Assembly: GCA_965541585.1 (NCBI GenBank)
Contig: CBEUCH010000015.1
Span: 7,120 to 71,119 of the forward strand
Source: an uncultured bacterium
Lineage (GTDB): Bacteria; Zixibacteria; MSB-5A5; UBA10806
Length of the DNA stretch: 64,000 nucleotides
Direction: 5' to 3'
A program made the position numbers and the translations under genes. This document shows positions 32,882 to 64,000 of the stretch, piece by piece. Numbering within the stretch: position 1 is the first letter of the stretch; each line of letters starts with the position of its first letter. Below the pieces are notes generated by a model. That model made no database searches, was not told where the DNA came from, and was given only the letters and a program-made list of their open reading frames with translations.

Positions 32882-33281
32882 AATCTCTCCCGGCATTGGT
32901 GCTTTAATCTTCCGATGATCATTCCAAGTTCGAAAAAACAGGGTAGCGACGATTATGTCAAGCGCAAAAGCCGCTCTTATAGTATCTTCAGGATTGTCGA
33001 TAACTCTTGCAGAGAACAAAGGAGGAGCGAGGAAATGGAGGCTTGTTTCGAAGCAATTTTAAGAAAGCCGAAAGCGTCAAACGGCCTCTAAATAACCGAA
33101 GTAAAGACGATCGATGATTCACATACTTTCTCCATCCAATGAGGATATTTCATGACCACCCCTGAATAGTTGCTCGTTTTTTTTACTCGGTTGCATTTCA
33201 AGAGCTTGCCGTGCCTGCAGAAAAAGTGAGAACTCACTTGTGTCTTTTTTATTATTATCGTAACTTAAAATGTAGATTATT

Positions 33282-33367
33282 GCCGGAATGGCGGAATAGG
33301 TAGACGCAAGGGACTTAAAATCCCTCGGTCCGTATGGACTGTGCCGGTTCGATTCCGGCTTCCGGCA
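33282..33367 (+). tRNA. tRNA-Leu (anticodon TAA), class II with a long variable arm
   Basis: Hand fold. The acceptor is GCCGGAA/TTCCGGC, the anticodon loop CTTAAAA, the extra arm CGGTCCGTATGGACTG, and the T-arm GCCGGTTCGATTCCGGC. Confidence 0.8.
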
Positions 33368-33476
33368 TTATAAATCACTACGAGTGAACGGGTTGCAAAA
33401 TGTGCATCGCAACCCGTTTTTTGGTGGATTGTAGGCAAGTCCTACATGAGTCCACACTTTTTGCGGTTTTTACCAG

Positions 33477-44932: not shown

Positions 44933-46483
44933 ATGGCGAAAAAGGATATCAAAAAGAATTCCGAAAGTTTCGAAAAAACACTATTTAAAGCAGCGGACAA
45001 ATTAAGAAAAAACATAGACGCGGCTGAGTATAAGCATATTGTACTCGGCCTTATTTTTTTGAAGTATATTTCTGACTCATTTGAGGAATTACACATAAAC
45101 CTCCTGGCAGGCAAAGGCGAATACAAAGGAGCCGATCCTGAAGATGCCGATGAATACCGTGCTGAGAATGTCTTCTGGGTTCCCAAGGTTGCTCGCTGGT
45201 CGCATCTTCACTCACGAGCCAAACAGCCAACTATCGGAAAAGATGTTGACGATGCAATGGAGGCAATCGAAAAAGAGAACAAGACCCTCAAAGGTATCCT
45301 CCCCAAAGTTTTCGCCAAACCAAATCTCGACAAGACTTCATTAGGTGGGCTGATTGACATGATCGGCAACATTGCTCTTGGTGATGAGGCTTCAAAGAGC
45401 AAAGATATACTTGGTCGAGTCTATGAGTATTTTCTTGGCGAATTTGCTTTGGCAGAAGGCAAGAAAGGCGGACAGTTCTTTACTCCCAAGTCAATCGTCC
45501 AGACTATGGTCGAAATGATCGCACCCTACAAGGGCAGGGTATTTGACCCCTGCTGTGGTTCTGGCGGAATGTTTGTAATGAGTGAGAAGTTCGTTGCCAG
45601 CCATAAAGGTAAGGTCAACGATATTTCCATATACGGTCAGGAAAGCAACCAGACTACTTATCGCTTGTGCAGAATGAACCTGGCATTGCGTGGCATCGAT
45701 GGCTCGCAGGTTAAGTGGAACAATGAAGGCTCCTTTCTAAAGGATGAACACAGGGACTTGAAGGCCGATTTCATTCTGGCTAATCCGCCATTCAATGATA
45801 GTGACTGGAGCGGTCAACTCCTGAGAAAAGACCCTCGTTGGCAGTACGGCGCACCACCCACTGGGAATGCCAACTATGCGTGGATGCAACACATGATTTA
45901 TCATTTGTCCCCAAAAGGGATTATGGGATTGGTGCTTGCCAATGGGTCGCTCTCTTCGAATACATCTGGCGAAGGGGACATCCGTAATAGTATTATAGGT
46001 GCTGACTTGGTGGATTGCATTGTCGCTCTGCCAAAGAATCTTTTCTATAACGTCACTATTCCTGCGTGCCTTTGGTTTCTTTCCCGTAAACGGACAGGCA
46101 ATGGTAATAGGAAACGCTCGGGCGAGATTCTTTTCATAGATGCTACCGAAGTAGGCCACATGATTGATCGCACTCATCGGGTGTTTACCGATGAGGATGT
46201 GTTGAGACTTGCCAACACCTACCATGAGTGGAGAAAAGAGAATGGCAACTATGAAGATATCAAGGGCTTTTGCAAATCTGCCGCACTCAAGAACGTAGAA
46301 AAGCACAAATTCGTCCTCACACCAGGGCGTTATGTCGGCATTCCCGACGAAGAAGATGACGGTATTCCTTTTGATGAAAAGATGAAATCGCTTACTGGTG
46401 AATTGGCCCAACAAATGTCAGACGAAAAGCGGCTCGATAGTGAGATACAGAAGCAGCTAAAGAATGTCGGGTATAACATTTAG
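44933..46483 (+). CDS. hsdM: Type I restriction-modification system DNA methyltransferase subunit
   Basis: It has the HsdM N-domain ([15 protein letters not shown]), AdoMet motif I ([13 protein letters not shown]) and motif IV (NPPF, in [12 protein letters not shown]). Confidence 0.85.
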
Positions 46484-46503: not shown

Positions 46504-47367
46504 ATGGCAAAATTAGGCATTTCAGAGTTTTCATTCAGCTTTTCTTTTCTGCATGAGCAGGTAAATAGAAATGGTAGACCATTCTGTGTTCCTGTATTAC
46601 CCTCTCTGCGTAGAGAATCTGATGTAGGGTATGATGCTAAGCTTCCTAAAAAGGGGATTGACTACTATTTCCAATTCAAAATGAGTGATTACTTGCGAGG
46701 TGGAAATGCCAAATTTATTAAGGATGGCACATATAGAAGTCTTTACTATCGAATTGCTCTGCATAAGGCCAAGAAGAACAAACAGCACAATCTTCTCTAT
46801 ATGCTTTCTCAAAAGAACCCATATGTTTACTACGTTGCACCTAAGCTAAGAACAGATCAGTCATTTTATGATGCTTGTGTAAGAAGGTTAGTTACGGTGA
46901 GTTCAATGATGATTCCAGTGGATTCCTGTGGTTATGTCAGCGATTCGCTTCAACACTTTGTGACATATCCAGAATTTGGCTATGAGTGGCATTTCCATTC
47001 AAAGCCCAAGCGATTTGATAATGCAATTGAAGGGGAGCGGATAGTTTCGCACTTCGCAGAAAGTTCTAAGAACTGGGTGGCTATCAACAAGGAATTCGCT
47101 TTGAATGTTTATGAACGAATAAAGCAATCAACATATGTATATCAGAGTGGTGATTTTGAAGGGATAGAAGATAATACGAGGAAAGCTATAGGCGATGACA
47201 AAAGATTAGGTATCGTAGGCGTAGAAACCAAAAAGCCAACTTTCAATGTTGAAGAGTTCTTTGATCGGAATATAAAAAAGTCAGATACTTTTACGATATT
47301 GCAGAGAGCATCCGCTATTGCGATGATGTTATATGGTTCAGCACTGATGATAGTCGGTGAAAACTAA
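46504..47367 (+). CDS. Hypothetical protein inserted between hsdM and hsdS
   Basis: It is a 287-aa open frame within the R-M operon, with 20-bp gaps either side. No motif is recognised. Confidence 0.4.
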   Translation: MAKLGISEFSFSFSFLHEQVNRNGRPFCVPVLPSLRRESDVGYDAKLPKKGIDYYFQFKMSDYLRGGNAKFIKDGTYRSLYYRIALHKAKKNKQHNLLYMLSQKNPYVYYVAPKLRTDQSFYDACVRRLVTVSSMMIPVDSCGYVSDSLQHFVTYPEFGYEWHFHSKPKRFDNAIEGERIVSHFAESSKNWVAINKEFALNVYERIKQSTYVYQSGDFEGIEDNTRKAIGDDKRLGIVGVETKKPTFNVEEFFDRNIKKSDTFTILQRASAIAMMLYGSALMIVGEN

Positions 47368-47372
47368 CAATT

Positions 47373-48542
47373 ATGAACAAGACTGATTCAAAGCAAATAC
47401 CTGATGGATGGAAAGAAACAACATTGGGAGCACTTGTTACCTTTCAACGTGGTCATGATTTGCCGAGATCTAAAATGGTTGATGGTTCTTTTCCAATCAT
47501 GGGGTCAAATGGTATTATTGGATTTCATAACCAAAGTACAACAAAAGCTCCAGGCGTGACAATCGGTAGAAGTGGTAATATTGGAAGAGCCTTTTTAGTG
47601 AAAAGAGATTATTGGGCGCATAACACAACATTATATTCCAAACAGTTTCATGATTCGGATCCTGTTTTTGTATATTATTTAGTGAAAAACCTAAAATTTG
47701 AAAGATTCAATTCGGGTAGTGCTGTTCCAAGTTTAAATAGAAACTTCATTCATCCGATTCAGCTAAATGCTCCAATTATCTTTGAACAAAAAGCCATTGC
47801 CAGGGTTTTATCCTCTCTCGATGACAAGATTGAGTTGCTACGCAAGCAGAATGAAACCCTTGAAGCGATAGCACAGACAATCTTCAAAGAGTGGTTTGTG
47901 AACTTCAACTTCCCTGACAAAAATGGAAAGCCGTTCAAGGACGGCGGCGGCAAGATGATCGACTCCGAGCTGGGCGAGATTCCTGACGGGTGGAGAGTGG
48001 GTAAACTCGGCGACGAGTTTGGCATACTAATGGGGCAATCGCCACCTGGAACAAGCTACAATGAAGAAAGCGAAGGGGTTGTATTTTTTCAGGGCAGAAC
48101 TGATTTTCAAGAACGATTTCCAAAAGTTAGGCTCTATACAACAGAACCCAAGAGAATCGCTGAAGCATTTGATGTATTGGTAAGCGTAAGAGCACCAGTC
48201 GGTGATGTTAATGTTGCCATTGAAACCTGCTGCATTGGTCGAGGTCTAAGCTCTGTAAGAGGACAGCAACAATCCTACACATTGTACAAAATGAAGTTTT
48301 TGGGAGACGTATTGCGACGATTCGATGCAGAAGGGACAGTTTTTGGGTCAATTAGCAAAGATGATTTCAAGAGTATTGAAGTCCTGACACCGATGGAAGA
48401 ATGGATAAACTCATTTGAGAACACAGTCAATCCATTGGATCAGAAAATACTCTCAAATTATAAGCAAATACAAACATTAACTCGACTACGAGACATTCTG
48501 CTGCCCAAGTTGATGAGTGGGCAGGTGAGGGTGAGGATGTAG
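47373..48542 (+). CDS. hsdS: Type I R-M specificity subunit with two target-recognition domains
   Basis: The central conserved coiled region ELLRKQNETLEAIAQTIFKEWFVNFNFPD and the repeated TRD architecture are present. It is 389 aa. Confidence 0.8.
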   Translation: MNKTDSKQIPDGWKETTLGALVTFQRGHDLPRSKMVDGSFPIMGSNGIIGFHNQSTTKAPGVTIGRSGNIGRAFLVKRDYWAHNTTLYSKQFHDSDPVFVYYLVKNLKFERFNSGSAVPSLNRNFIHPIQLNAPIIFEQKAIARVLSSLDDKIELLRKQNETLEAIAQTIFKEWFVNFNFPDKNGKPFKDGGGKMIDSELGEIPDGWRVGKLGDEFGILMGQSPPGTSYNEESEGVVFFQGRTDFQERFPKVRLYTTEPKRIAEAFDVLVSVRAPVGDVNVAIETCCIGRGLSSVRGQQQSYTLYKMKFLGDVLRRFDAEGTVFGSISKDDFKSIEVLTPMEEWINSFENTVNPLDQKILSNYKQIQTLTRLRDILLPKLMSGQVRVRM

Positions 48543-48557
48543 AAGGAGGGAATCAAA

Positions 48558-48923
48558 ATGGAAAGGTATATTCTAACAACCTATGATAAGAACAGATTAA
48601 GCTCCTATCCTATGATAATTTCAATACACGGTAAATCGTGGTGTTGTAAGCAGGCTCGAATCCTTGTTCAAAGTATGGATGGTGGTTTCATAACTGCTAA
48701 CTGTATGAAATGTAATAATAAAACGAATGTATTGATTGACGAATTTCAATCTTTTGATAGAGACGTAAACTGTCCCAAATGTGGTATGGTTATGTCTCCT
48801 GCTTATGTCCCTGATGGAAGTAAAATTGAAGAACGTAACTATGGTTTTAAGTGCATGAAATGTGATATTTATATATGGGCATCTGATTTAATTCCATATT
48901 ATGAAGATTTTCCATATAGATAA
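48558..48923 (+). CDS. Small zinc-ribbon protein (four CxxC pairs) inserted between hsdS and hsdR
   Basis: CC-KQ, CMKCNNK, CPKCGM and CMKCD motifs are present. AGGAGGG lies 6 nt before ATG 48558. Confidence 0.4.
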   Translation: MERYILTTYDKNRLSSYPMIISIHGKSWCCKQARILVQSMDGGFITANCMKCNNKTNVLIDEFQSFDRDVNCPKCGMVMSPAYVPDGSKIEERNYGFKCMKCDIYIWASDLIPYYEDFPYR

Positions 48924-48931
48924 TAAGAAAC

Positions 48932-51900
48932 ATGACAAGAGACAAAATCACAGAAGATGCAGTCGAACAGGTAGCCATAGAGCTACTCGAAGAGCAGGGA
49001 TACCACTACCTCACTCCCGAACAGTGGGAGGCTGAACGAGGGGACCTATCCAATGTTCTCTTGAGGGATCGTCTGAAAACTGCCATTGATAAACTTAACC
49101 CGATAATTCCGCAGGAAGCGAAAGAACAAGCCTTACGAGTAGTGTCGAATCTTCCCAGTCAGAATTTGGTGGAGAACAACGAGACGTTTCATCGGATGTT
49201 GACCGATGGAATTGACGTTGAATATATGGGAGATGATGGCATTAAAGGTGATAAGGTCTGGCTTATTGATTTCAAAGAACTCACCGAAAATGACCTGGTC
49301 GTTTGTAATCAGTTTACGGTTATCCAGGACAGCCTCAACAAACGCCCAGACGTGGTGCTGTTTGTTAATGGATTGCCACTTGTTGTGATAGAGTTGAAAA
49401 ATCCAGCTGATGAAAACGCTACTGTTAAGAAAGCATATACCCAGCTCCAGAATTACAAGAACGCAATCCCCAATCTGTTTTATTATAATGGAATTTTAAT
49501 AGCTTCTGATGGCCTGGACGCAAAGGTTGGATCATTGACTGCAGGTTGGTCTCGGTTCATGGTCTGGAAAACGAGCGATGGAGCCAAGGAAGATAAGGTC
49601 ACTATTCCTCAAATGGAAACCGTCATCAGAGGTATGCTGAGACCCGATGTACTGTTTGACCTTATAAAGCAGTTCACTGTCTTTGAAAAAACCAAAAAAG
49701 AGGACACCAAGACCAGATTCACAACAATAGAAACAGCTAAGAAGATAGCGGCATATCACCAGTATTATGCCGTCAAGAAAGCAGTTGAATCTACCAAGCG
49801 GGCCGCCAGTGATAATGGAAGTAGAAAAGGTGGCGTTGTCTGGCATACGCAAGGCAGCGGTAAATCTCTTTCCATGGTGTTCTATTCAGGACAGACAGTA
49901 TTAGAACTTGATAACCCAACGATTGTAGTAATTACCGATAGAAATGATCTTGATGATCAGCTATTTGATACTTTCGCGGGTTGTAAACAGCTATTAAGAC
50001 AAGAGCCAGTACAGGCGGAGAATCGGGAACACCTAAAAAAACTACTCAAGGTTGCTGGCGGCGGTATCGTATTCACGACAATTCAGAAGTTCTCGCCTGA
50101 AGACGGCGGAGATGTATTTGATCTATTATCTGACAGAAAAAACATCGTTGTAATAGCCGACGAAGCCCATAGGAGCCAGTACGGATTCGGCGCCAAGACT
50201 ATCGTGCGAAATAATGAAGCATATACCAGTTATGGCTTCGCTAAGTATCTCAGGGATGCCCTTCCAAAAGCGACCTTCATTGGATTTACAGGCACACCTA
50301 TTGAAAAAGAAGACAGATCAACGCGAGCAGTCTTTGGCAATGAAATTGATATCTATGATATTTCTCAGGCTGTCAAAGACGGAGCAACTGTTCGTATTTA
50401 CTATGAATCCCGATTAGCTAAAGTCCACCTGAAACCCGAGGAGAAAGATAAGCTCGACGCTGAAGTTGAAAGAATAACTGAAGGTGAAGAATCGACTGCG
50501 AAGGAAAAGGCAAAAGCCAAATGGACTCAACTCGAAGCAATAGTTGGGCATCGGGATAGGCTAAAATCTGTCGCCAAAGATATTATCGATCATTTTGAGA
50601 GGCGGGAGGAAGTATTTGACGGTAAGGCCCTAATTGTGACTACGAGCCGTCGCATAGCTGTTGAGTTATACGAAAAAATAATGGCCTTACGTCCACATTG
50701 GCATGGCGACGATAAGAGAAAAGGCGAGATCAAGGTAATAATGACCTCCAGTTCCAGCGATCCTCAAAGCTGGCAAAAGCATAATACAACAAAGCAGGAC
50801 AGAAAAGACATTGGGGAAAGGTTCAAAGACCCGAATGATAGGCTGAAATTCGTTATAGTTAGGGATATGTGGCTTACAGGCTTTGATGCCCCTTGTCTCC
50901 ACACCATGTACGTTGATAAGCTGATGCGAGGACATAACCTAATGCAGGCCATAGCGCGCGTGAATAGGGTTTTCAAAGATAAACCTGGCGGCCTCATTGT
51001 TGACTATATCGGAATTGGATACGATCTCAAAAAAGCGATGGCAACCTATTCTGAAAGCGGTGGGGAGGGTGAACCAACTTTGGATATTGATGAAGCTATC
51101 GCGACAATGCTGGAGAAGTACGAAATCGTTGCTCAAATGTTTGATGGTTTTGATTATAAGCGATATTTTACAGCCAATACTAAAGACAAGATGACAATCA
51201 TCTTGGAAGCCCAGGAGCATATTCTCGGTCTGGACGACGGCAAGAACAGATTTGTAAGACAGGTGATTCTGCTTTCAAAAGCCTTTGCCCTATCCGTGCC
51301 AAATGAAGAGGCAATGGCGATTAAGGATGATATTGGCTTCTTTCAAACGGTAAAGGCTCGTCTCACGAAATTCACTCCAACAGGAGGCGGTAAGTCTGAC
51401 GAGGAGATAGAAACAGCAATACGGCAGATTGTCGATAAAGCCATAGTTTCAGAAGGAGTAGTCGATATATTTGCTGCTGCTGGTATCAAGAAGCCTGATA
51501 TTTCGATATTGTCGGATGAATTTATGGCTGAAATTAAAGGTATGAAACGAAAGAACCTAGCTTTTGAATTATTAAAGAAAATCTTGTCCGACGAAATCAG
51601 GCTCAGATTGACCAGAAACCTAATTCATGGCAAAAAGCTATCTGAACTGTTGGAAAACGCTATTAAGAAATACCAGAATAACCTCCTGACCGCGTTTCAA
51701 GTTATTGAAGAATTGATTGAACTGGCTAAACACATCAAGTCCGAAGATGAGCGCGGCAAAGAGATGAATTTGTCCGCAGATGAAATTGCATTCTACGATG
51801 CTTTGGCAGATAACGATAGCGCAAAAGAAGTTCTCGGCGATGACACACTACGAGAGCTTGCTAGAATATTGGTCGAGAAAGTTCGCGCTAATACGTCAAT

Positions 51901-52054
51901 TGACTGGACAATTAAGGAGAGTGTTCAGGCCAAATTGCGGACAATAATCAAGAGAACGCTACGCAAGTTCGGCTACCCGCCTGATAAGCAGTTGTTGGCA
52001 ACCGAGAATATTCTTAAACAAGCGGAGTTGTTTGCAAATGAATGGGCTGCGTAG
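48932..52054 (+). CDS. hsdR: Type I restriction enzyme R subunit (SF2 helicase-nuclease)
   Basis: The HsdR N-terminal nuclease region, Walker A HTQGSGKSLSMV, DEAH box VVIADEAHRSQ and motif VI region are present. It is 1040 aa. Confidence 0.85.
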   Translation: MTRDKITEDAVEQVAIELLEEQGYHYLTPEQWEAERGDLSNVLLRDRLKTAIDKLNPIIPQEAKEQALRVVSNLPSQNLVENNETFHRMLTDGIDVEYMGDDGIKGDKVWLIDFKELTENDLVVCNQFTVIQDSLNKRPDVVLFVNGLPLVVIELKNPADENATVKKAYTQLQNYKNAIPNLFYYNGILIASDGLDAKVGSLTAGWSRFMVWKTSDGAKEDKVTIPQMETVIRGMLRPDVLFDLIKQFTVFEKTKKEDTKTRFTTIETAKKIAAYHQYYAVKKAVESTKRAASDNGSRKGGVVWHTQGSGKSLSMVFYSGQTVLELDNPTIVVITDRNDLDDQLFDTFAGCKQLLRQEPVQAENREHLKKLLKVAGGGIVFTTIQKFSPEDGGDVFDLLSDRKNIVVIADEAHRSQYGFGAKTIVRNNEAYTSYGFAKYLRDALPKATFIGFTGTPIEKEDRSTRAVFGNEIDIYDISQAVKDGATVRIYYESRLAKVHLKPEEKDKLDAEVERITEGEESTAKEKAKAKWTQLEAIVGHRDRLKSVAKDIIDHFERREEVFDGKALIVTTSRRIAVELYEKIMALRPHWHGDDKRKGEIKVIMTSSSSDPQSWQKHNTTKQDRKDIGERFKDPNDRLKFVIVRDMWLTGFDAPCLHTMYVDKLMRGHNLMQAIARVNRVFKDKPGGLIVDYIGIGYDLKKAMATYSESGGEGEPTLDIDEAIATMLEKYEIVAQMFDGFDYKRYFTANTKDKMTIILEAQEHILGLDDGKNRFVRQVILLSKAFALSVPNEEAMAIKDDIGFFQTVKARLTKFTPTGGGKSDEEIETAIRQIVDKAIVSEGVVDIFAAAGIKKPDISILSDEFMAEIKGMKRKNLAFELLKKILSDEIRLRLTRNLIHGKKLSELLENAIKKYQNNLLTAFQVIEELIELAKHIKSEDERGKEMNLSADEIAFYDALADNDSAKEVLGDDTLRELARILVEKVRANTSIDWTIKESVQAKLRTIIKRTLRKFGYPPDKQLLATENILKQAELFANEWAA

Positions 52055-52154: not shown

Positions 52155-54647
52155 ATGATAAATAAAATAATTAAATTGAACAATCTTGGTCTCTTCAAAG
52201 GATCAACATGGGCAGATAGTGATCTCCAGTTTGGGAAGGTCAATCTCCTTTACGGATTTACTGGGAGCGGGAAAACAATGCTTTCCAATGTTCTAAGGAT
52301 GTTCAGCAAAGACTTACCCAGTGATGAACAATGTGCGATCCTGGACCAACTGCGCAATAAGGAGAGTGTGGATGTTGAGATTGAGCTACTATGGGATAGT
52401 AAAAAGGTAAGATCCTTCTCTGAAAGAAAGAGCATTTTCGTGTTCAACTCACATTTTGTGAATGAACATGTCTATGACGGCTCAAGCTCAAAGCTAAAAC
52501 ACTTTAAGGCAAGTGTTGTTACAACAGAGCATCTCAAGAATCCAGAAATAAAAAAATCGGAGGACTCTATATCAGTTAAGCAACAACAGTATGAGCAGAA
52601 TCAGAAGCAGATCACGCAGTTGTCCGAGCTGGCGCGTACAACAAGGGCTAATCTCTCAAACCTGTGGAACGCGTCTATTTCTGGTCCCAGACTACCGCAA
52701 AATCTAAATCTCAACAATCCCGAGATCATCCCTCATGGGGCCTCAGAAATTACGCTTGATGAACTTGAGAACCAATTGGCGGATCATTATCGAAAGTTCA
52801 AGGTCACAAAAAGTAATTATGATCTGCAAAAGGATGAAAAAACACTGGAAGAAAGGACCTTTGAAAAACTCACCATCCCATTAGCAATAGAGTCACAACT
52901 ACAAAAGGATATTTCGCAGGAGGCCTACAAGAAAATAAAGGGGAGGCTGGACACTCTCAAAGAGTCAGAACTCAAGCATTCAAGCGTTCAGGAATGGTTT
53001 GAAGACGGTGTTGTGCTCCTGACTGACTCAAAGGATAGGCAGAAATGCCCTCTTTGTGATAGCGACATTCCCAATATAAGAGAGATCATCGAGGACTATA
53101 ACAGTTTCTTCAATGAGGAATTTGTAGGACTTCAAAAGGCCCTCGCTGCGGAAGTGCAGCAATTGAACACAATCTTAGAAACGGCAAGGAATGATAAGGA
53201 CCGATTTGATATTCTTAGCAAGATTATTCATAAATATCAGTTTATAGAGAAACTCACAAAGGACCAGAAATCCTTGCTACAGGAATATTCCATTATCGAG
53301 CTTGAAGACGTTGTAAATTCTGCCAAGAACCTTGTTGTTAAGAAACAAAAACAACTGGAAACGCTGTTCTTCGATAAGGACTTAGCCCCGATCCGTGATG
53401 CACTAGAAGAAATCAGAGCATACAACAAGACCATTGATAAGATTGAAACTCTTAGGAAAAAAGCACTGGTTGAGTTGAAGAGGAGTAGCTTCAATCTCAA
53501 TACGGCAAAAGAGACCGCAAAAGATTGTTTCTGGAAGAAATTCGATACCCTCGGGCATGTCTATGCAAAGAAATACGCGAGGAGCAACGAAGGTAAGAAA
53601 ACAGATCAGATGGGAGGAATCGAATTCTACAAATACCTGATTGAAATAAATGAGTGCTTAAGCAGGGAAATAGGGCAATGTAGGAAAGACAAGCTAGTTT
53701 TATTATCAAAACTGAAGAAAGAATCAGAGTTTGTGAATTCATTTCTCCAGCAGTTGTGTATTGCAAACTTCAAGATCAGAGTCGGCGATAAGGAAGAAGA
53801 CGATATAGAGGTTATATACGGTGACGGTGTAACCAAGAAAGGAATAAAGTATTCGTTAAGTGAGGGGGAGAAAACTGCTCTCGCTTTCGCGTATTTTCTC
53901 AGTAAGGTCAAGTATGAAATTTTAGATAACACACAGAGTAGACTGAAAGACCATGTAATGGTCATTGACGACCCAGTATCAAGTCTTGACGAAAACAGGC
54001 TATTCTCAACAGCATTACTCATAAAAGCAATGTTTGCTAGAGATTCAAAGCAATTATTCGTATTCAGCCATAATCTTGTGTTTTTGAAATTTATGGGCAG
54101 CGTTCTCGGGAAAGTGGATAATGAGGAGCGAAAGGATTTCTATCTGGAGAATGGGAAGATTGAGGGATTGCCAAAAACATTGCAGAACTTTCAAACATCG
54201 TACTTTTACAAGCTTGGAAGATTACAGGCCTATCTTGATGGGGAAGTGGATTACGAATCCGCGAAGGACGTGATTCCGAATTGTGCGCGAATAGTCTTGG
54301 AGTCATTTCTTTCTTTCAAATTGTGCCGTCTGAAGCAGGGTAGCGGTGCGAGTAACAGGTATAAGTCCGCTGGATTGGACAGGTTGATACCGGCAATAGA
54401 TGGCGTTAGCCTAACTGGTTTTACGCCGGTTGGCAATATCAATGACAAAAAAAGTCTGGTTCAAACGCTGTGCGAGATTAAGAACAGGGTGGATCCTGAA
54501 AGTCATGGAACGCCACAGGATATCACTGAGTTTGAGTTCCTGCCTGAATCTGAACTAAAGAAAGTCACCCATAATACTCTCGATGTAATTGCATTCTTAG
54601 ATCAGATCCATATTCGGGAGGTAAGCCGACTGGGCACACAAGGTTAG
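52155..54647 (+). CDS. RloC/PrrC-like ABC-type ATPase (AAA_13-like) with a long coiled-coil insert carrying a CxxC zinc hook. It is a putative anticodon-nuclease-type abortive infection protein.
   Basis: It has Walker A GFTGSGKTM, an ABC signature LSEGEKTALAF, Walker B/D-loop VMVIDDPVSSLDENR and an H-loop FSHN. Between Walker A and the signature lies about 500 aa of heptad-rich sequence with QKCPLCDSD at its midpoint. The C-terminal 170 aa includes ARIVLESF (an R-x3-E pair as in the PrrC ACNase motif). Confidence 0.5.
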   Translation: MINKIIKLNNLGLFKGSTWADSDLQFGKVNLLYGFTGSGKTMLSNVLRMFSKDLPSDEQCAILDQLRNKESVDVEIELLWDSKKVRSFSERKSIFVFNSHFVNEHVYDGSSSKLKHFKASVVTTEHLKNPEIKKSEDSISVKQQQYEQNQKQITQLSELARTTRANLSNLWNASISGPRLPQNLNLNNPEIIPHGASEITLDELENQLADHYRKFKVTKSNYDLQKDEKTLEERTFEKLTIPLAIESQLQKDISQEAYKKIKGRLDTLKESELKHSSVQEWFEDGVVLLTDSKDRQKCPLCDSDIPNIREIIEDYNSFFNEEFVGLQKALAAEVQQLNTILETARNDKDRFDILSKIIHKYQFIEKLTKDQKSLLQEYSIIELEDVVNSAKNLVVKKQKQLETLFFDKDLAPIRDALEEIRAYNKTIDKIETLRKKALVELKRSSFNLNTAKETAKDCFWKKFDTLGHVYAKKYARSNEGKKTDQMGGIEFYKYLIEINECLSREIGQCRKDKLVLLSKLKKESEFVNSFLQQLCIANFKIRVGDKEEDDIEVIYGDGVTKKGIKYSLSEGEKTALAFAYFLSKVKYEILDNTQSRLKDHVMVIDDPVSSLDENRLFSTALLIKAMFARDSKQLFVFSHNLVFLKFMGSVLGKVDNEERKDFYLENGKIEGLPKTLQNFQTSYFYKLGRLQAYLDGEVDYESAKDVIPNCARIVLESFLSFKLCRLKQGSGASNRYKSAGLDRLIPAIDGVSLTGFTPVGNINDKKSLVQTLCEIKNRVDPESHGTPQDITEFEFLPESELKKVTHNTLDVIAFLDQIHIREVSRLGTQG

Positions 54648-55014: not shown

Positions 55015-55743
55015 GTGACAGTCAAAAAAAAGAAGACTCGGCGGAGCAGGCAATTAGTTCTAGGCCATTTAGAACGGATTTCGAGTAAAGTATTTTCTGA
55101 CTTCCCAAAGCAACTTACAGATTTAGTGAGCAAACAACACGGTGTTTACGCCCTTTATAAGGGCAACCGTCTCTATTATGTTGGGCTTGCCAGCAATTTG
55201 AGAAATAGAATCAGACATCATTTGCGAGACAGACATGCAGGGAAGTGGGACAAATTCAGCCTTTATCTGGTAAGAAAAGCTGATCATATAAAAGAGCTTG
55301 AATCATTGATCTTGCGAATTGCGGATCCAACAGGAAATGCAATAAGGGGGGGATTGGCCCGAGCCGAGAATTTGAGATTTGAACTTCAGGCAAAAATAAA
55401 AGCAGCCCAGGAGAAACAACTATTTAGCCTACTTGGCGCCAAGAAGAGGATAAAACTAAAGCAGAGAAGGTCTCGACCGCAAAGAAAGGTCAAGATGGCT
55501 TCTAAACCTGCTTTAGCTCCCTACGTCAAAAGGCGTTTTAAGATTCGTGCCAGAGATCGTGGAAAATTGTTCGAAGCGAGAGTTAGGAGCAATGGCACAA
55601 TCAATTTCAACGGGAATCTTTTTAATTCACCGTCTGGCGCTGGAAAGGCCGCAACCGGTCGTTTAAAAAATGGATGGTGGTTCTGGCATTTCAAGAATAA
55701 GAAAGGTGAATGGGTGCGTCTGAGGGAGTTGAGGCGTAAGTAG
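55015..55743 (+). CDS. GIY-YIG nuclease-domain protein with a basic C-terminal region
   Basis: The N-terminal GVYALYKGNRLYYVGLASNLRNRIRHH is a GIY-(10)-YVG...R...N signature. The C-terminal NGWWFWHF...GEWVRLRELRRK resembles the small domain often fused to GIY-YIG in R-M-associated proteins. Confidence 0.5.
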   Translation: MTVKKKKTRRSRQLVLGHLERISSKVFSDFPKQLTDLVSKQHGVYALYKGNRLYYVGLASNLRNRIRHHLRDRHAGKWDKFSLYLVRKADHIKELESLILRIADPTGNAIRGGLARAENLRFELQAKIKAAQEKQLFSLLGAKKRIKLKQRRSRPQRKVKMASKPALAPYVKRRFKIRARDRGKLFEARVRSNGTINFNGNLFNSPSGAGKAATGRLKNGWWFWHFKNKKGEWVRLRELRRK

Positions 55744-57141: not shown

Positions 57142-57864
57142 TTGGATGATAAAATGTTGAAGACAGGCCAAATCCAGAAAGCCTTGGTCGAAGCTGGCTT
57201 TAATCCCGAAGAGGAACTGCTGAATCTGGAATCATCCGGCAGTGGTTTTGAAGTCCCTAGGATTAGGATCGATCATAAAGACTCGGGAAAACACCGTATC
57301 TATATTGACCACGGAGAGAACTACCTTGGCGGGGACACCCAGGAAGAGACCCTACCCGAGAGCACATTTCAGGCAGTCGTATTCGCGGAGCAGGACATCA
57401 GGGCCCTTTGGACAGATGGTATAGCACTGCCAATCTGCAGTGGAATAGACGGAAAGCCGATGGTGAACGATCCGGTTAGCCCGAGCTGTATGAATTGCGA
57501 GGAAGCAATCATCAACCGGGGCAAGTGCAAACCGAAAATCAGACTATGGCTGCTTCTCGAAAAAGAGGGACAGATCAGGCCATTTGTAATGAGCCTGAGT
57601 CCGACATCGATCAAACACTGGAACCAGCATAAAAGAAAGCTGAAGAGGTCGAGGCTTCCTGTCGTTGCGGTAACCACTGTCTTCAGTCTTCAGGACGTAA
57701 AGAAGAACAGCTACAGATGGGCGGAAGTCCTGTTTGACGTTGCCGGGAGGCCATCGATGGATACGCTTCAGATGGCCAAACAGGCCCGGGATGAGTTGGA
57801 TCGGGTGATGCAGGACATCACGGTCAGAGACTTTGAGGATTCTGGGGAACAGTCTGGGAGCTAA
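57142..57864 (+). CDS. Hypothetical protein (240 aa), upstream partner of the large helicase gene
   Basis: An open frame with a CSGIDG...CMNCEE...CKPK Cys cluster. No family is recognised. Confidence 0.4.
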   Translation: MDDKMLKTGQIQKALVEAGFNPEEELLNLESSGSGFEVPRIRIDHKDSGKHRIYIDHGENYLGGDTQEETLPESTFQAVVFAEQDIRALWTDGIALPICSGIDGKPMVNDPVSPSCMNCEEAIINRGKCKPKIRLWLLLEKEGQIRPFVMSLSPTSIKHWNQHKRKLKRSRLPVVAVTTVFSLQDVKKNSYRWAEVLFDVAGRPSMDTLQMAKQARDELDRVMQDITVRDFEDSGEQSGS

Positions 57865-58049
57865 GGGAAGAAGCCGGCCTCGTAAGGGGTCGGTTTCATC
57901 ATTCGCAAAATGAACTTGATGTTTGATTCTCGAAAATTTGCCTTTACATACGATTCGACCCACATTATTATGTATGAAATTCCGTAATTCTGTCAGACGC
58001 CTTGTAGGTCAACTGTTGTCTTAATAGCCACCAAATTAAGAGGCAACAA

Positions 58050-61000
58050 ATGGAAAATGAAAAATATGATAAAGGCGAAAGCGCAATGAAGGCCTGGTTT
58101 GATTCCTTCCGAATAAGAGACTGGATTGACATGGCAGAGCTAACCGAGAGGATTTCAGTATTTTCCGAAAAGGAATCACAATTTCTCCACAAAATGGCGG
58201 AATTGGCTGAGCAAGGTCCCCCTCCCACTGTTAAGCAAATTGGATTTGCTCAGAGTATTGTCGATAAGATTGGACTATCAAGAGGCGACCGTCCGATATC
58301 TGGCGAAATAAAGGTGGAGAAGATACTGGACAATAAAACCGCAGACAAAACTATGCACCTGACAGTACGCCTTGCTTGGCACTCTGACGGATGGAATGGA
58401 AACATATGTACCGCACCCGATAAGAATGATTACTGCGTAGGAGAACATTCGCTGTTATCAAAGAGGGTGAGGGAAAACAGAAACCTAGCAACTGAGTCAG
58501 AGCTCGCTGGGTGCAAATGTGACGAAGGCCACAATAAAGACTATCAGGCTCCATGTTACTGGTCCATCAATGCGTTGGGTGACTCTCCTATTCATTGTCA
58601 GCACGAACACGCAATTGAGAGAGGAGCACCTAAAATCGGAGAAGATCTTCCTCCCTATTCGGTTTTCACATGGCCTTTCAAACTATTTTTTTCCAGAAGC
58701 AAAGAGGAAAAGGAAAAAAACGGTAAATACCCTCCTATGCAGGAAGACAAGGCAATGCGCTTCTTCGGTAAATTTTCAGAAGGAAATTCTATAGTATTCC
58801 TTTATTGTAATTACGACAATCCGATTTCGGGTGACGACCAAAAATATCTGTTAGTCGGCTGTGGGTTGCTTAAAGGGAAAGGCAAATTAAGCCATTTTAA
58901 TATATCACGCGAGCGAATGAGTTGGTGGCAAGCTAAAAAAGAATTTAAAAACTTCTCCAATCTGAATTGGAGTTATAGAATCTCAATGGATCTGCCTAAG
59001 ATGGGCGTAATTATCCCGTATCACAATTATCTCAGACACGCCGTAGAAAATGATAATTACGCTTATCTCAACGAAATAAAGATAATAATTGATGAACCGG
59101 AGCTTATACCCGGCTTCAAATATGTGGCTATGGATATTGATGACGATCAGGCGATATACCTGCTTACTAAGATAAGAAAAAGCCTTTATAAGATGAAGGA
59201 ACAAGCTTTCTTAACAAAAACTGAATTTAATCTGGATGATGCAATAAGAAAGGCAGAATACTTGCTGGGTCTATGTTGGAACAAGAGAGGTTATCTTCCT
59301 GGTCTGGGGAAACTCGCACGGATATTTCTGGATCGCAGCAAGGCCGAGCCACTTAGATTAGACGAGTTATTTTCAACTATGACAGGCAGTGCAGATGCAG
59401 TTGAAGAGCTTATAAGTCTGCTAAATGATCCAGAAAACCTCCCCGATGAAATGGATGATTATTATGACGAGTTATCTGACTTGCACGATACGATAAGGTC
59501 TAAAGGTTTATCAACAGAGGAATTCATTCGGCTCTCAGCGTTAGACCTTACTGATCATCAATTTAGACGAATTGTACAAGGTAGGATCTCCGATAATGGT
59601 GTTGGGCTCAAGGATATATGCAATAATCCCTATGTCCTTTGCGAGGAATATCAGATAAGTGATTATGATCATATAGAGGACCCAATAACGGGTGACCAGA
59701 TCGATGGGTTGATACACGTATTTAAAATAGATATCGCATATTATCCTGATGTAAGATTTCAAAAGAAGCTAAAGTTGCTTCACAGGATGACGAGTGATGA
59801 TCCTCGAAGGATAAGAGCGCTAGCGATATCTTATCTTAGGGGAGTAGAGGAAAGCGGTGATTGTTTTGAAAGTGGAGTCGAACTGGGAAAGAGGCTCATG
59901 GAATATCCTTTGTTTTACAAATCTATTTATCTATTGCGAGAAGATATCTTAACTCATCCCGACAGGCCTCTGGAGAGCCATTTAGCAGAGAAGATAGTAA
60001 TAGAAAGAGATACTGAAAATCAAAGGATATTTTATTATTTAAAAGAAATCTATGAAGCTGAAAGATCCGTTGAAGATGCCATTAACTTTCTTCTCAGGCA
60101 GCCAGATATTGAAATCGCTCCACAATTGGGCGTCGGTGAATCGGCAACGTATCTTAAAAATAAACTGGGAGAAAGATTCAGGGAAGGACAATTTCTATTG
60201 GAACGCAGTAAGCTCTATGAGAAGATTCTAAAGAAAAGGGTTTTTGTTCTTTCTGGAGGACCAGGAACTGGTAAGTCGTTTGAACTTTTAAAGTTAATAG
60301 ATGTACTCAAGCAGGACGGGCAAAATTATCTGCTGCTTTGTCCCACAGGCAAGGCCACGTTACGACTTAAGAATAATGATGAGGGATTTGGAAATATCAT
60401 TGCTCGGACAATTGACAAATTCTTTGCCGAAAGAAAAAAGGAAAAGAATAGCAGATATGTCGTCGAAAACCTAATAATTGATGAATTTTCCATGGTAGAC
60501 TTGAAAAAAATGAGGGATTTGCTTGATATAGTAAGAGTGAAATCCCAGGATTTCAAGAGACTTATATTAGTTGGTGACGAGCATCAGCTTCCACCAATCG
60601 GGTATGGAAGAGTCCTTTATGATATAGTTAATTATTTGAAGAGAGATGCCCGCTATGAGGCTAATAATTATATTCGTCTGGAAACCAATTGCCGCCAAGA
60701 GTATGATGAAAACATAGTAAAGTTTGCTAGAATATTCTCCAGACAAGAAAGAAATCCGGAGCATTTACTGACGAAGATGGCTAAAGGCGGGAACGTATCA
60801 AAAGGATTATTAATACAATATTGGAACTCTCGAGAACAGCTATATGAGTTAATAACCTCGACATTTGCAAATATATTCGGAGACCAAAATACCGGCATCG
60901 ATCTTGATCTTTTGATAAACACAGTGTTTGGCTTAGAACAGGACGGAACCATCGATGAGAGTGACTCCCGATTCAATGAAAGTCTTAAAGTTGATAGGTT

Positions 61001-61964
61001 CCAAATAATATCTCCATACAGAACCGGGTTCTTCGGGGCGCTGGGTTTGAACAACTATGTTCAAGAGAAATTCAAAGGTAAGCAGAGTTTCATTCCTCGC
61101 CTTTCTTTGAAGCACGGGGATAAAATAATGCAGATTGAGAATATGTATAGTAATGATGGTAGAGAACTACTAATATCAAATGGCTCCCTCGGTGTTGTCC
61201 AGCAAAGAGGACAGTATGGAAAGTCGTTTTACTTTCTGGAAAGATCCAAACCTTTCACCCGCCTCAAAGAGGAGTCATTTGAGTTGGCCTATGCCATCAC
61301 GGTGCATAAGTCCCAGGGCAGTGGCTTTGACCATGTATTCTTCATTGTACCTTCAAAAAGCACGCTGCTGTCAAGAGAGCTAGTTTACACTGCTATGACC
61401 AGGTCTAAATTAGGCATTTCTATTTTTGTACACGATGCAGGGAAGATTGAAAGTAGGGCTAATAAATTCCACGAGATCATCAACAAATCAAGCGTAGAAT
61501 TACGTAAAACAAGCCTAATGGGAAAATATTACTGGGAATTTTCTTTGAATCCTGCTCCCGATGTGTATGTGAGATCTAGAGCAGAATATATCATTTATAA
61601 AAGCCTTTTAGAATTCAAAAAACAGGAAAGCAGTTTCTCGTTCGCCTACGAGAATCCTCTTGAGATTGATGAAGAATTATCTATAAAACCAGATTTCATA
61701 CTGATTACCCCGAAGGGCGAATTCTATTGGGAACACCTAGGCCGCCTTGGTGACATACACTACGAAGGATCTTGGCAAAGTAGGCGAAAGTTATATGAAA
61801 GAAAGGGTCTAATTGACAATTTGATTACCACCGACGAGCTTCTTGGCATACACGATAGCAAGATCAAAAAGATAATATTTCAAATTTGTCGTGGAAAGCT
61901 ATCTTCAGATAGAGAAGATGAAAAGTACTCATTACACCATTATCAGCTATCAGATTATTCTTAA
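58050..61964 (+). CDS. Large multidomain protein: an N-terminal 650-aa Cys/His-rich unknown region, a RecD/TraA-like SF1 helicase core, and a C-terminal Vsr/DUF559-like (PD-(D/E)xK) nuclease fold
   Basis: The helicase motifs are VFVLSGGPGTGKS (I), LLCPTGKATLRL (Ia), LIIDEFSMVD (II), LILVGDEHQLPPIG (III) and AITVHKSQGSGFD (V/VI). The C-terminal SRAEYIIYKSLLEF...KPDFILITPKGEFYWEHLG resembles a DUF559/Vsr-type endonuclease. Confidence 0.6.
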   Translation: MENEKYDKGESAMKAWFDSFRIRDWIDMAELTERISVFSEKESQFLHKMAELAEQGPPPTVKQIGFAQSIVDKIGLSRGDRPISGEIKVEKILDNKTADKTMHLTVRLAWHSDGWNGNICTAPDKNDYCVGEHSLLSKRVRENRNLATESELAGCKCDEGHNKDYQAPCYWSINALGDSPIHCQHEHAIERGAPKIGEDLPPYSVFTWPFKLFFSRSKEEKEKNGKYPPMQEDKAMRFFGKFSEGNSIVFLYCNYDNPISGDDQKYLLVGCGLLKGKGKLSHFNISRERMSWWQAKKEFKNFSNLNWSYRISMDLPKMGVIIPYHNYLRHAVENDNYAYLNEIKIIIDEPELIPGFKYVAMDIDDDQAIYLLTKIRKSLYKMKEQAFLTKTEFNLDDAIRKAEYLLGLCWNKRGYLPGLGKLARIFLDRSKAEPLRLDELFSTMTGSADAVEELISLLNDPENLPDEMDDYYDELSDLHDTIRSKGLSTEEFIRLSALDLTDHQFRRIVQGRISDNGVGLKDICNNPYVLCEEYQISDYDHIEDPITGDQIDGLIHVFKIDIAYYPDVRFQKKLKLLHRMTSDDPRRIRALAISYLRGVEESGDCFESGVELGKRLMEYPLFYKSIYLLREDILTHPDRPLESHLAEKIVIERDTENQRIFYYLKEIYEAERSVEDAINFLLRQPDIEIAPQLGVGESATYLKNKLGERFREGQFLLERSKLYEKILKKRVFVLSGGPGTGKSFELLKLIDVLKQDGQNYLLLCPTGKATLRLKNNDEGFGNIIARTIDKFFAERKKEKNSRYVVENLIIDEFSMVDLKKMRDLLDIVRVKSQDFKRLILVGDEHQLPPIGYGRVLYDIVNYLKRDARYEANNYIRLETNCRQEYDENIVKFARIFSRQERNPEHLLTKMAKGGNVSKGLLIQYWNSREQLYELITSTFANIFGDQNTGIDLDLLINTVFGLEQDGTIDESDSRFNESLKVDRFQIISPYRTGFFGALGLNNYVQEKFKGKQSFIPRLSLKHGDKIMQIENMYSNDGRELLISNGSLGVVQQRGQYGKSFYFLERSKPFTRLKEESFELAYAITVHKSQGSGFDHVFFIVPSKSTLLSRELVYTAMTRSKLGISIFVHDAGKIESRANKFHEIINKSSVELRKTSLMGKYYWEFSLNPAPDVYVRSRAEYIIYKSLLEFKKQESSFSFAYENPLEIDEELSIKPDFILITPKGEFYWEHLGRLGDIHYEGSWQSRRKLYERKGLIDNLITTDELLGIHDSKIKKIIFQICRGKLSSDREDEKYSLHHYQLSDYS

Positions 61965-62100: not shown

Positions 62101-62838
62101 ATGTCTAAAAGGGAACGCGGCAGCCGTAAACATATTCTGGAACTTGTCAATAAATCGGATTTCGTTAATGTAATGAACGATCTGCTGGATTCTCATGGAA
62201 TTGTATTCGCAGGTCAGGATCGACAACAGCCCAATACGAATAGTAAAGAAGAGTGGACACTCCGTCAATTCTGCAGTCAGCATTGCCAGGATTCCTTTGA
62301 TTTCGCCAGCTTTGACAAATGGTGGGTACCGGATAAATATAAGAATCCGACGTGGGATTTATTATCGACATGCGTCATTAAGGGACGACCAGGCCTACTA
62401 CTGGTCGAAGCTAAAGCGCATGAGGAGGAGCTGCATTTTGAAGGCAAAGAACTCGGAAACAACGCTTCGGAGCAATCCCGAAAAAACCACGAGCGGATTC
62501 GTCAATGCATAGAACAAGCCAACAAATCGTTAAATGAAAGGCGTGGAGGTTTCAATATTAGTATCGATAAATGCTATCAACTTAGTAACCGAGTGGCATC
62601 CGCCTGGAAGCTTGCGGAATGCGGTTTGCCAACAGTACTACTTTATTTGGGTTTCATTGGAGACAAGTACTTCGAAAATTATTTCATTGATTATGGCCAT
62701 TGGCAGAGGATGATGGGCGCACATATTATAAATGTCGTGCCGCTTTCGTTTCCCAGCAAAAATTTAGAATTTGAAAAAGAAGTGACTTTAATGATGTTAA
62801 TAAAATCATTACCAATCTTATCTGAGGGTATTTCTTAA
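62101..62838 (+). CDS. Hypothetical protein with a possible PD-(D/E)xK nuclease core
   Basis: TWDLLSTCV...GLLLVEAKAHEEE could be a D...(E)VEAK restriction-endonuclease-like motif. The evidence is weak. Confidence 0.3.
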   Translation: MSKRERGSRKHILELVNKSDFVNVMNDLLDSHGIVFAGQDRQQPNTNSKEEWTLRQFCSQHCQDSFDFASFDKWWVPDKYKNPTWDLLSTCVIKGRPGLLLVEAKAHEEELHFEGKELGNNASEQSRKNHERIRQCIEQANKSLNERRGGFNISIDKCYQLSNRVASAWKLAECGLPTVLLYLGFIGDKYFENYFIDYGHWQRMMGAHIINVVPLSFPSKNLEFEKEVTLMMLIKSLPILSEGIS

Positions 62839-62842
62839 TTTA

Positions 62843-63811
62843 TTGGTTATACCGCTTATATTTAGGTTTGCGGGGAACGCTATCAGAATTATGAAGCTTA
62901 AAAAAGACCAAAGATGGGATGGTTGGCCCGCAATTGATGAAGAATACTTTGATTCCCTCGCGGCGAACTTAACATTAAGACCAGAAATACCAAAACAGAT
63001 CCACCGCCTCATTAAACAAATGAAGTCGGTCTTAAGATTTTGCTATTTTGATTACGAATTGATTGGAATTACTAATCTTTTATCAGTGCTCGCATTTGAA
63101 ACTGCATTGAATCTTAAGTATCAAGAAATGGTTCCTGCGGAAGACCAAAATGCAAAAATTAGTCTTTTTCAGCTTATCAAATGGGGTGAAAGGGAAAATC
63201 TGTTTGAAGAGCACATAGATTCACTCCATTCGTTAAGGAAGGTTCGCAATATGTATGCTCACCCAAAGGATGCTATGATTTTTGGAATCATGGGGATTCA
63301 TTCAACAATAAAAATAATTGATTTAATCAATGGAATATATGATAGCCGGATAGATTATAGAATTAAACGTAAAAGAAAGACAGATAGGATTAATCGAGTT
63401 CTTTTCCACCGTTCGAAAGAAGGATTGATTCTCCAATTAGAGGATTTACGGCTTATCGTTTTTGATTCACGCCTTATTCTCTATAATAACCTCTCTTCAG
63501 ATCCAGAATATTATTTTTGGATATATCCGATATTTGAAATCAAAGAAGACGCGACAGAAGTAGATGAGAAGAAGCCGATTATACTGCACTGTAAATCCAT
63601 CAAATTTAAGAAATCAAGCGATGGTTGGAAGATGGTTATTGGAGAATCAACCTTGACAGAGATTGCTGGAAAAGAGGATAAGGAAAAATTCCGCCTCTGG
63701 CAAGAAAAACTCAATTCCTGTAAACTGCCTATTAAGTTTGCTATTGATCAAAGATACAATGATTTACGACGAGAGCTAATGTCGGATAAAATATACAAGT
63801 GGGCAGATTAA
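62843..63811 (+). CDS. HEPN-domain protein of Abi_2/AbiD-like type (R-x2-RN-x2-AH motif)
   Basis: SLRKVRNMYAHP matches the Rx4-6H HEPN catalytic motif in the RNxxAH form seen in AbiD/AbiF-type abortive infection proteins. It is 322 aa. Confidence 0.4.
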   Translation: MVIPLIFRFAGNAIRIMKLKKDQRWDGWPAIDEEYFDSLAANLTLRPEIPKQIHRLIKQMKSVLRFCYFDYELIGITNLLSVLAFETALNLKYQEMVPAEDQNAKISLFQLIKWGERENLFEEHIDSLHSLRKVRNMYAHPKDAMIFGIMGIHSTIKIIDLINGIYDSRIDYRIKRKRKTDRINRVLFHRSKEGLILQLEDLRLIVFDSRLILYNNLSSDPEYYFWIYPIFEIKEDATEVDEKKPIILHCKSIKFKKSSDGWKMVIGESTLTEIAGKEDKEKFRLWQEKLNSCKLPIKFAIDQRYNDLRRELMSDKIYKWAD

Positions 63812-63857
63812 GTATATTGATCAAGGTTGTTTAGGGTATAAGGAACTTTAATGATTC

Positions 63858-64000
63858 TTATTTTCTGCGGACCCTGGTTTTAAATATAACCTCCGCAACC
63901 TCCCTAACCATCACAACATCATCAGCAGACTTCCGCTTCAATAGCTTCATCAAATCATCCAGAGCAAACTGAGCCTTCGTCTTCTTCTCCGGAAAATCAA
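63858..64000 (-). CDS. Partial CDS (C-terminal 47 codons) entering from the right edge
   Basis: The minus-strand frame is open from the window edge to stop TAA at 63860-63858 (…DFPEKKTKAQFALDDLMKLLKRKSADDVVMVREVAEVIFKTRVRRK). Identity is unknown. Confidence 0.2.
   Translation of the reverse strand, partial: DFPEKKTKAQFALDDLMKLLKRKSADDVVMVREVAEVIFKTRVRRK

Follow-up and report, generated by a model that had tools for sequence, protein, structure and literature searches.

In the 64,000-nt stretch of DNA analysed here (hereafter the window; positions 7,120 to 71,119 of the forward strand of contig CBEUCH010000015.1, assembly GCA_965541585.1, from an uncultured bacterium of the Zixibacteria), two neighbouring genes at the right-hand end encode nuclease-like proteins, which we call A and B. 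A belongs to an unnamed family predicted to adopt the PD-(D/E)xK, or restriction-endonuclease-like, fold, and B combines a predicted N-terminal HEPN domain with a beta-rich C-terminal domain. Our favoured reading, which we hold with moderate confidence, is that A and B are separable defence candidates, each consisting of one gene, that are probably transcribed together within a variable island hotspot at a tRNA-Leu gene. A preliminary description of this DNA had taken them for a dedicated pair, possibly a toxin or abortive-infection (Abi) module, and the distribution of the two families does not support that view: A and B are adjacent in two related loci only, and each family otherwise occurs alone.

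Gene A (62101..62838, + strand) encodes 245 aa, with the coordinates of the list of open reading frames (ORFs), while for gene B (62891..63811, + strand), which encodes 306 aa, we depart from that list, where the ORF runs from a TTG start, 62843-63811. The preliminary description had placed two + strand ORFs here, and both are present; it had also placed the stop of A and the start of B 4 bp apart, a figure that holds from TTG 62843 but not from the likelier ATG. The residues encoded from ATG 62891 read MKLKKD..., the one close homolog, P0002 (60% identity to B), begins MKLEKD... and aligns to the residues encoded from that ATG, the rest of the B family begins at the same point in the family alignment, and the public database entry identical to the gene B protein is the 306-aa ATG form. 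Since P0002, the wider family and the database entry agree, the most likely start of gene B, judged from these sequences, is ATG 62891, 52 nt past the A stop. The two starts thus imply different spacings, 52 nt with a conserved ATG against 4 nt with an unconserved TTG, and the translational coupling once proposed for the window is not supported with the longer one. Tight coupling is found in a relative, locus L001, where A and B overlap by ATGA and have no spacer, and probably not in the window, where with the likelier start a 52-nt spacer (62839..62890, + strand, containing the alternative TTG 62843) separates them. A structured RNA or a terminator in this spacer was ruled out: its RNA structure is not significant (z -0.88), and the terminator scan found no terminator-like site between A and B on the + strand. 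Promoter-like sites were no commoner than in shuffled sequence. Because A and B are read from the same strand without an intervening terminator, co-transcription in the window is probable.

Gene A has more than 560 homologs, spread over many bacterial phyla, and none of them carries a Pfam domain. The preliminary description had suspected a restriction-fold motif, 'D...EAK', in this upstream gene, and rightly so, as the confident model matches the PD-(D/E)xK fold and the residues concerned are near-invariant. In the motif 'WD...LLLVEAKAHEEE', D86 (encoded at 62356-62358), E103 (62407-62409) and K105 (62413-62415) are retained in 195, 197 and 197 of 198 family sequences, respectively, with the invariant spacing D-x16-E-x-K. 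E51 is also near-invariant in the family, giving E51, D86, E103 and K105 as the candidate catalytic set, and further invariant residues are G7-S8, P44, W75, N129, Y159-Q160 and N163-R164. In the model, D86 lies just before strand 87-93 and E103-A-K105 closes strand 96-105, so that the predicted placement of D and ExK on consecutive strands is the classical PD-(D/E)xK arrangement, and the best structural matches are PD-(D/E)xK nucleases (BstEII, NucS, SfsA, Can2 and Tox-REase-5). The protein thus combines the restriction-endonuclease-like alpha/beta core with the D...(D/E)-x-K motif of the PD-(D/E)xK superfamily (Pfam clan CL0236, which we take to be the PD-(D/E)xK clan). Searches of Pfam, NCBIfam and PADLOC (PADLOC-DB v2.0.0, E<=1, PDC set included) gave no match to gene A, its family profile found nothing among PDB sequences at E<=10, and tblastn against plasmids and phages returned one weak plasmid match. 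Weak matches to DUF6946, a family assigned by its authors to clan CL0236 (PMC10584680), were seen in 5 of 59 gene A relatives. Sequence and model together place A in an unnamed family of predicted PD-(D/E)xK fold.

The B family was revealed by an exhaustive hidden Markov model (HMM) search, which yielded 364 cluster representatives, mostly of 300-320 aa; such a search was needed because k-mer-indexed ones gave a single relative at first and, when repeated with an 80-sequence alignment, three proteins only. HEPN domains are recognised by an Rx4-6H motif ending helix 3, in which a polar residue (N, D or H) directly follows the R, and by a helix 2 that carries an acidic residue, often within Ex3[KR] (PMC3710099). 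All of these are found in gene B. Its model has a HEPN domain at about residues 30-150, an all-alpha up-and-down helical bundle (Pfam clan CL0291), and resembles the SO_3166 HEPN toxin (5yep). The active-site segment R116/R119-N120-x3-H124 (R-N-M-Y-A-H) stands at the end of helix 3, with R119 and N120 closing helix 109-123 and H124 coming right after it, and the acidic residue of helix 2 is E70, in helix 57-80. The preliminary description had read LRKVRNMYAHP (residues 115-125 counted from ATG 62891; encoded at about 63233..63265, + strand) as a HEPN RNxxAH motif. This identification is upheld by the confident HEPN fold and by the retention of R119, N120 and H124 in 148, 146 and 148 of 150 family sequences; E70 is retained in 148 of the 150. 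The family consensus around E70 is FExALK, and the window protein has N at +4.

The motif is thus conserved among homologs, and weak matches to HEPN-clan profiles occur family-wide. DUF4145 is the commonest weak Pfam match, found in 28 of 80 B relatives at E<0.1 (best 1e-4); in the window protein it reaches 12.1 bits (E=0.22, residues 102-126 only) and misses the gathering cut-off of 23.1 bits. Other HEPN families are matched by a scattering of the same 80 relatives. Membership in Abi_2 (AbiD/AbiF), which the preliminary description had read from the motif, was rejected: the HMM search gave no match at E<=1 for the window protein and one among the 80 relatives, at E=0.039, the nearest Pfam family being DUF4145, below threshold. 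Nor did gene B match any PADLOC model (PADLOC-DB v2.0.0, E<=1, Abi models included) or NCBIfam model; its family profile found nothing among PDB sequences at E<=10, and tblastn of gene B against plasmids and phages gave no match. On sequence and model evidence B is best assigned to the HEPN superfamily, as a member of an unnamed family whose nearest named relative is DUF4145. In the model, its C-terminal domain consists of seven strands (179-257) and, after them, two helices (261-302). The Foldseek matches that involve this half are all non-significant, of DH/PH, PH and EVH1 type (all E >0.01), and the modelled domain may tentatively be called PH-like.

Two representatives of the B family are fusions. 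P0251 (940 aa) carries a B-like HEPN part at residues 649-845 and a long N-terminal part with a 'DIVV...IFLIECK' motif resembling that of restriction endonucleases (REases), and in P0190 (632 aa) an Apea-like HEPN (RSAIVH) is fused to a B-like module. The N-terminal parts of both gave no match to the A-family profile (for the P0251 segment, none at E<10). A fusion, or Rosetta-stone, link between the two families was considered and rejected, as no B-family representative matches the A profile.

The separability of the two genes is apparent from a survey in which 80 genome loci with A relatives were fetched; with L001, 80 usable A loci outside the window were available, and every ORF of the A loci was searched with the B profile. 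B adjoins A in one of these 80 loci, L001 (identity to the window 73% for A and 60% for B), and is absent from the other 79. The closest other relative of A with usable flanks, at about 71% identity, lies in L087, a locus syntenic with the window on both sides: its left flank holds a 240-aa gene that is 90% identical, its right flank a convergent gene of the XRE helix-turn-helix (HTH) type, and after A an unrelated 252-aa protein (6831-7589, + strand) occupies the slot of B. For this 252-aa protein a Pfam scan gave no match, and the precomputed annotation lists a weak Y4jL_N match. On the side of B, six other distinct contexts were compared (L001 together with L082, L083/84, L085, L086 and L092/93), and in five of the six, all but L001, no A-like ORF was found near the B relative. 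The neighbours there vary, from a TIR protein with an integrase, a YgjP-like gene and a HerA-like ATPase to plain housekeeping genes; in L086, the B relative stands between 6PGD and a glucosamine-6-P isomerase-family gene. A search for relatives that started from a two-sequence B alignment had reached two loci only, that is, one context. With A and B adjacent in the window and L001 alone, their co-occurrence is not that of a two-gene module. Because A mostly occurs without B, and B without A in five of its six other contexts, we read the genes as functionally separable, and their pairing belongs to a single small lineage.

We consider it unlikely, although deserving of serious weight, that A and B are nevertheless a genuine two-gene module in this lineage. 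In one form of such a module, a toxin-antitoxin or abortive-infection pair, A would hold back or switch on the HEPN RNase B; in another, a DNA-sensing nuclease would be coupled to an RNase effector. The module could also be a cassette, with A as a constant first gene and an exchangeable second one (B here and in L001, the 252-aa protein in L087). The genes are neighbours on the same strand in two loci between which synonymous divergence (dS) is saturated, and in L001 they overlap by ATGA, as described above. Moreover, a terminator-like hairpin (AAGCCGGCCTC...GGCTTT(T)) precedes A in both L001 and L087, and in L087 it recurs behind the second gene, which suggests a two-gene unit there. Fusions of DUF4145-type HEPN domains to REase domains are known (PMC3710099), and within the B family itself P0251 has its 'D...IECK' REase-like segment upstream of the HEPN part. 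This segment, however, does not match the A profile, B is missing from 79 of the 80 other A loci, L087 among them, and B relatives lack A in all but one of the contexts compared. Furthermore, both proteins are large and have intact catalytic sites, so that neither looks like a small antitoxin, and in the window a 52-nt spacer parts the genes. Somewhat less likely still, in our view, is a more ambitious version in which the A family is an unrecognised anti-phage nuclease family, habitually embedded in type I restriction-modification (R-M) operons, that here serves as the constant first gene before a swappable second effector, A sensing or cutting invading DNA and the effector executing abortive infection.

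The A family is strongly associated with type I R-M operons. Counting genes within 6 kb of A, Hsd genes were found in 29 of the 80 other loci. hsdS lies directly upstream of A in 14 loci, with the start codon of A overlapping the hsdS stop in many Bacteroidota loci, hsdR lies directly downstream in 9 and a GmrSD-like gene in 7, and in 11 loci A is fully embedded in the type I R-M operon. Other genes found downstream of A include RhuM/Fic, Peptidase_U49 (Lit-like), GIY-YIG, REase-ARP and NucS_C-type nucleases. The approach of 'guilt-by-embedding' in type I R-M operons has given validated defence genes as well as the PDC candidates of PADLOC (10.1101/2024.01.29.577857), and TgvAB is a tested example of its logic (PMC11411939). 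Because embedding in an R-M operon is an established predictor of defence function, we propose a defence role for gene A.

The same association could mean that A is no autonomous defence gene but an accessory component of the type I R-M system, acting alongside HsdM, HsdS and HsdR as an additional nuclease or regulatory subunit, and that its adjacency to B is incidental. We think this improbable. The frequent position of A between hsdS and hsdR and the start-stop overlaps in Bacteroidota would suit such a role, as would the type I R-M operons found upstream of A, at a distance of ~10 kb in the window and ~5 kb in L001; but 51 of the 80 loci have no Hsd gene within 6 kb, and in the window, L001 and L087 unrelated genes and the terminator-like hairpin part A from hsd. 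In addition, unrelated defence genes, for example PrrC and TgvAB, are known to settle between hsdS and hsdR (PMC11411939; 10.1101/2024.01.29.577857).

Both genes are real and intact. The AlphaFold2 models, each built from the family alignment, have a mean pLDDT of 95.7 for A and 95.6 for B; nonsynonymous divergence (dN) between the window and L001 is 0.18 for A and 0.29 for B with dS saturated, and for A against L087 the dN/dS ratio is 0.13. Both genes are under purifying selection and have kept their full length, and it is the confident models and the dN/dS evidence that lead us to judge them real genes. The idea that A, B or both are binding modules lacking catalysis or remnants in decay, their motifs being chance resemblances, might draw on the position of the window proteins below every curated family threshold and on the shortness of the Rx4H motif, but it is barely credible, being largely refuted by motifs that are near-invariant across 150 (B) and 198 (A) sequences and opposed also by confident structure predictions that match the expected folds and by selection on both full-length genes.

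From the folds, the conserved motifs and the genomic settings of the two families, as set out above, we infer enzymatic activities, substrates, a trigger and a role in defence as follows. With its complete predicted D...ExK metal-binding site, A would be a Mg2+-dependent DNA endonuclease, and it may act on its own against a phage or plasmid, complementing the neighbouring restriction systems. B would dimerise through its HEPN domain, R119, N120, H124 and E70 making up a composite RNase site that needs no metal; it might stay inactive until its beta-rich C-terminal domain meets a phage-derived trigger, whereupon the activated protein could cleave cellular or phage RNA and stop translation, with abortive infection as the outcome. 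The mechanism suggested for B is drawn by analogy with RAZR (PMC13017515), HEC-08 and HepS.

Several points weigh against our favoured reading of two separable single-gene defence candidates. The activities of A and B, their toxicity and any anti-phage effect are predictions from sequence and models, and the putative sensor role of B depends on a modelled C-terminal domain without a significant fold match (Foldseek E >0.01). The comparison of B contexts covers six other distinct ones, and several of these are not obviously defence-related, that of L086 for instance. Finally, the persistence of the A-B pair to saturated synonymous sites, together with the ATGA overlap in L001, also fits a functional pair.

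The surroundings of the two genes agree with the defence island that the preliminary description had seen here, as the window holds a type I R-M system, an AAA_13 ATPase, a GIY-YIG/RAMA protein and PDC-S68. The island carrying A and B probably has its left attachment end at a tRNA-Leu(taa) gene (33281-33368) beside a tyrosine integrase gene (33477-34550, - strand). A 632-aa protein (37860-39758, - strand) with a CARF-like domain (Cas_NE0113, E=2.5e-18) and a sigma-54 AAA+ activator suggests a cyclic-oligonucleotide-responsive transcription regulator, and a D5/P4-alpha-like primase-helicase (41242-43767) suggests that the island is a satellite-like or integrative element. The type I R-M operon consists of hsdM (44933-46483), hsdS (47373-48542) and hsdR (48932-52054), and encloses two further ORFs on the + strand, one of 287 aa between hsdM and hsdS (46504-47367; no Pfam or NCBIfam match) and one of 121 aa between hsdS and hsdR (48558-48923; weak matches to a zinc ribbon and a SIR2 fragment), both of which are defence candidates by the logic of embedding. 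Directly after hsdR comes the gene for the 830-aa AAA_13 ATPase (52155-54647, + strand), followed by those for a 242-aa GIY-YIG + RAMA/DUF4357 protein (55015-55743, + strand) and for a cysteine-rich 240-aa protein without a family match (57142-57864, + strand), the ortholog of which lies at 5119-5841 in L087. Next to A, PDC-S68 (58050..61964, + strand; 1304 aa), a single-gene defence candidate of PADLOC, matches PADLOC PDLC05064 end to end (E=0, 1400 bits) and has a RecD-like SF1 helicase core (Pfam AAA_19, AAA_30 and UvrD_C_2); neither of the syntenic loci L001 and L087 contains its gene, and it is not part of an A/B unit in relatives. In L001 a type I R-M system is accompanied by Gabija-like genes, for an OLD/TOPRIM ATPase and a UvrD helicase.

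To the right, the window ends 189 nt past B, inside a convergent XRE-type HTH gene of which it contains the 3' end (63851..64000, - strand; start approximate), and the right-hand edge of the island is beyond the window. The translation of this fragment matches the C-termini of the HTH_31/HTH_19 proteins found after B in L001, and also the C-terminus of the HTH protein in the right flank of L087, so that by sequence comparison the gene can be taken as the conserved right flank of the hotspot. G+C drops rightwards, from about 0.49 to about 0.40. T9SS sorting domains are encoded near the locus, a hint of the FCB group.

The hairpin mentioned above recurs at cassette boundaries in this hotspot: after the 240-aa gene in the window (57871-57881), before A in L001 (about 9110-9150) and L087 (about 5850-5890), and after the 252-aa gene in L087 (about 7610-7650). 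The hairpin may delimit transcription units or recombined segments; its single match in the window is no rarer than chance. A conserved region upstream of A across the three syntenic loci was also sought and set aside as poor apart from this hairpin. Since the hairpin that lies upstream of A in L087 sits here after the orthologous 240-aa gene, PDC-S68 looks like an insertion between the terminator-like hairpin and A. Between the window and L087 the 240-aa gene is 90% identical (dS 0.49), whereas the adjoining gene A is about 70% identical with a dS of 1.37; from these sequence distances the cargo of the hotspot appears to be either far more diverged than the backbone of the element or exchanged relative to it.

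Neither family has a Pfam, NCBIfam or PADLOC model, and A is abundant and bears the signature of R-M embedding. Should either gene protect against phage, it would represent a new single-gene defence family, and B, if our reading of it is correct, would be a further HEPN RNase, its C-terminal sensor domain and its trigger offering subjects for study. For annotation, the lesson is that two neighbouring nuclease-like genes in a defence hotspot need not be a toxin pair. A and B are useful for screening, and they extend existing catalogues while leaving concepts unchanged, because the HEPN abortive-infection RNase and the REase-fold nuclease are already well known.

Among known systems, B comes closest to DUF4145 (PF13643), its nearest Pfam profile, a family reported in R-M neighbourhoods (PMC3710099; PMC13017515) that includes the abortive-infection RNase RAZR, or PD-T7-4. 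RAZR, itself a DUF4145 HEPN protein, is a precedent for a HEPN domain plus sensor domain as a single-protein defence (PMC13017515), and shares with B a divergent HEPN domain with catalytic R...H joined to a second domain in one defence-type protein. In RAZR, however, the HEPN domain is C-terminal and its partner is a zinc finger, whereas in B it is N-terminal and accompanied by the beta-rich domain. A similar layout occurs in HEC-08, an Hma-embedded candidate with an N-terminal DUF3644 HEPN and C-terminal zinc-ribbon domains, in which mutation of the motif histidine abolishes defence (10.1101/2024.01.29.577857). Like B, it unites an N-terminal HEPN domain and a non-catalytic C-terminal one in a single chain, and matches the SO_3166 HEPN toxin (5yep) in structure; unlike B, it belongs to another HEPN family and has another C-terminal domain, B being matched by no PADLOC model. 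Single-protein HEPN defences also include HepS and AbiV. With Abi_2 (AbiD/AbiD1/AbiF, PF07751), B has in common the HEPN superfamily, an R[N]xxxH-type motif, a length of about 300 aa and a defence or R-M-embedded context (PMC3710099), and differs in matching neither the Abi_2 profile nor an Abi model of PADLOC. More distant are the HEPN-MNT systems, as no MNT gene is present here, the 306-aa B protein has an extra domain, and gene A has the predicted PD-(D/E)xK and not the MNT fold. Their type II/VII toxins (for example 5yep, 7ae2 and 8xdj) are of about 130 aa and are AMPylated by the paired MNT antitoxin.

For gene A, the likeness to the PD-(D/E)xK nucleases named above (CL0236) lies in the predicted fold and in D-x16-E-x-K, and the difference in that it reaches no curated threshold and has extra invariant residues of its own. 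In its neighbourhoods, the A family fills the same hsdS-hsdR slot as the defence genes embedded in type I R-M operons (PrrC, TgvAB/GmrSD-like genes and the PDC candidates), and GmrSD-like genes often adjoin its members; as a difference, A matches no model of PADLOC v2.0.0, and in the window it lies outside the R-M operon. The families of A and B are both new and unnamed, but the kinds of defence nuclease to which they belong are well known.

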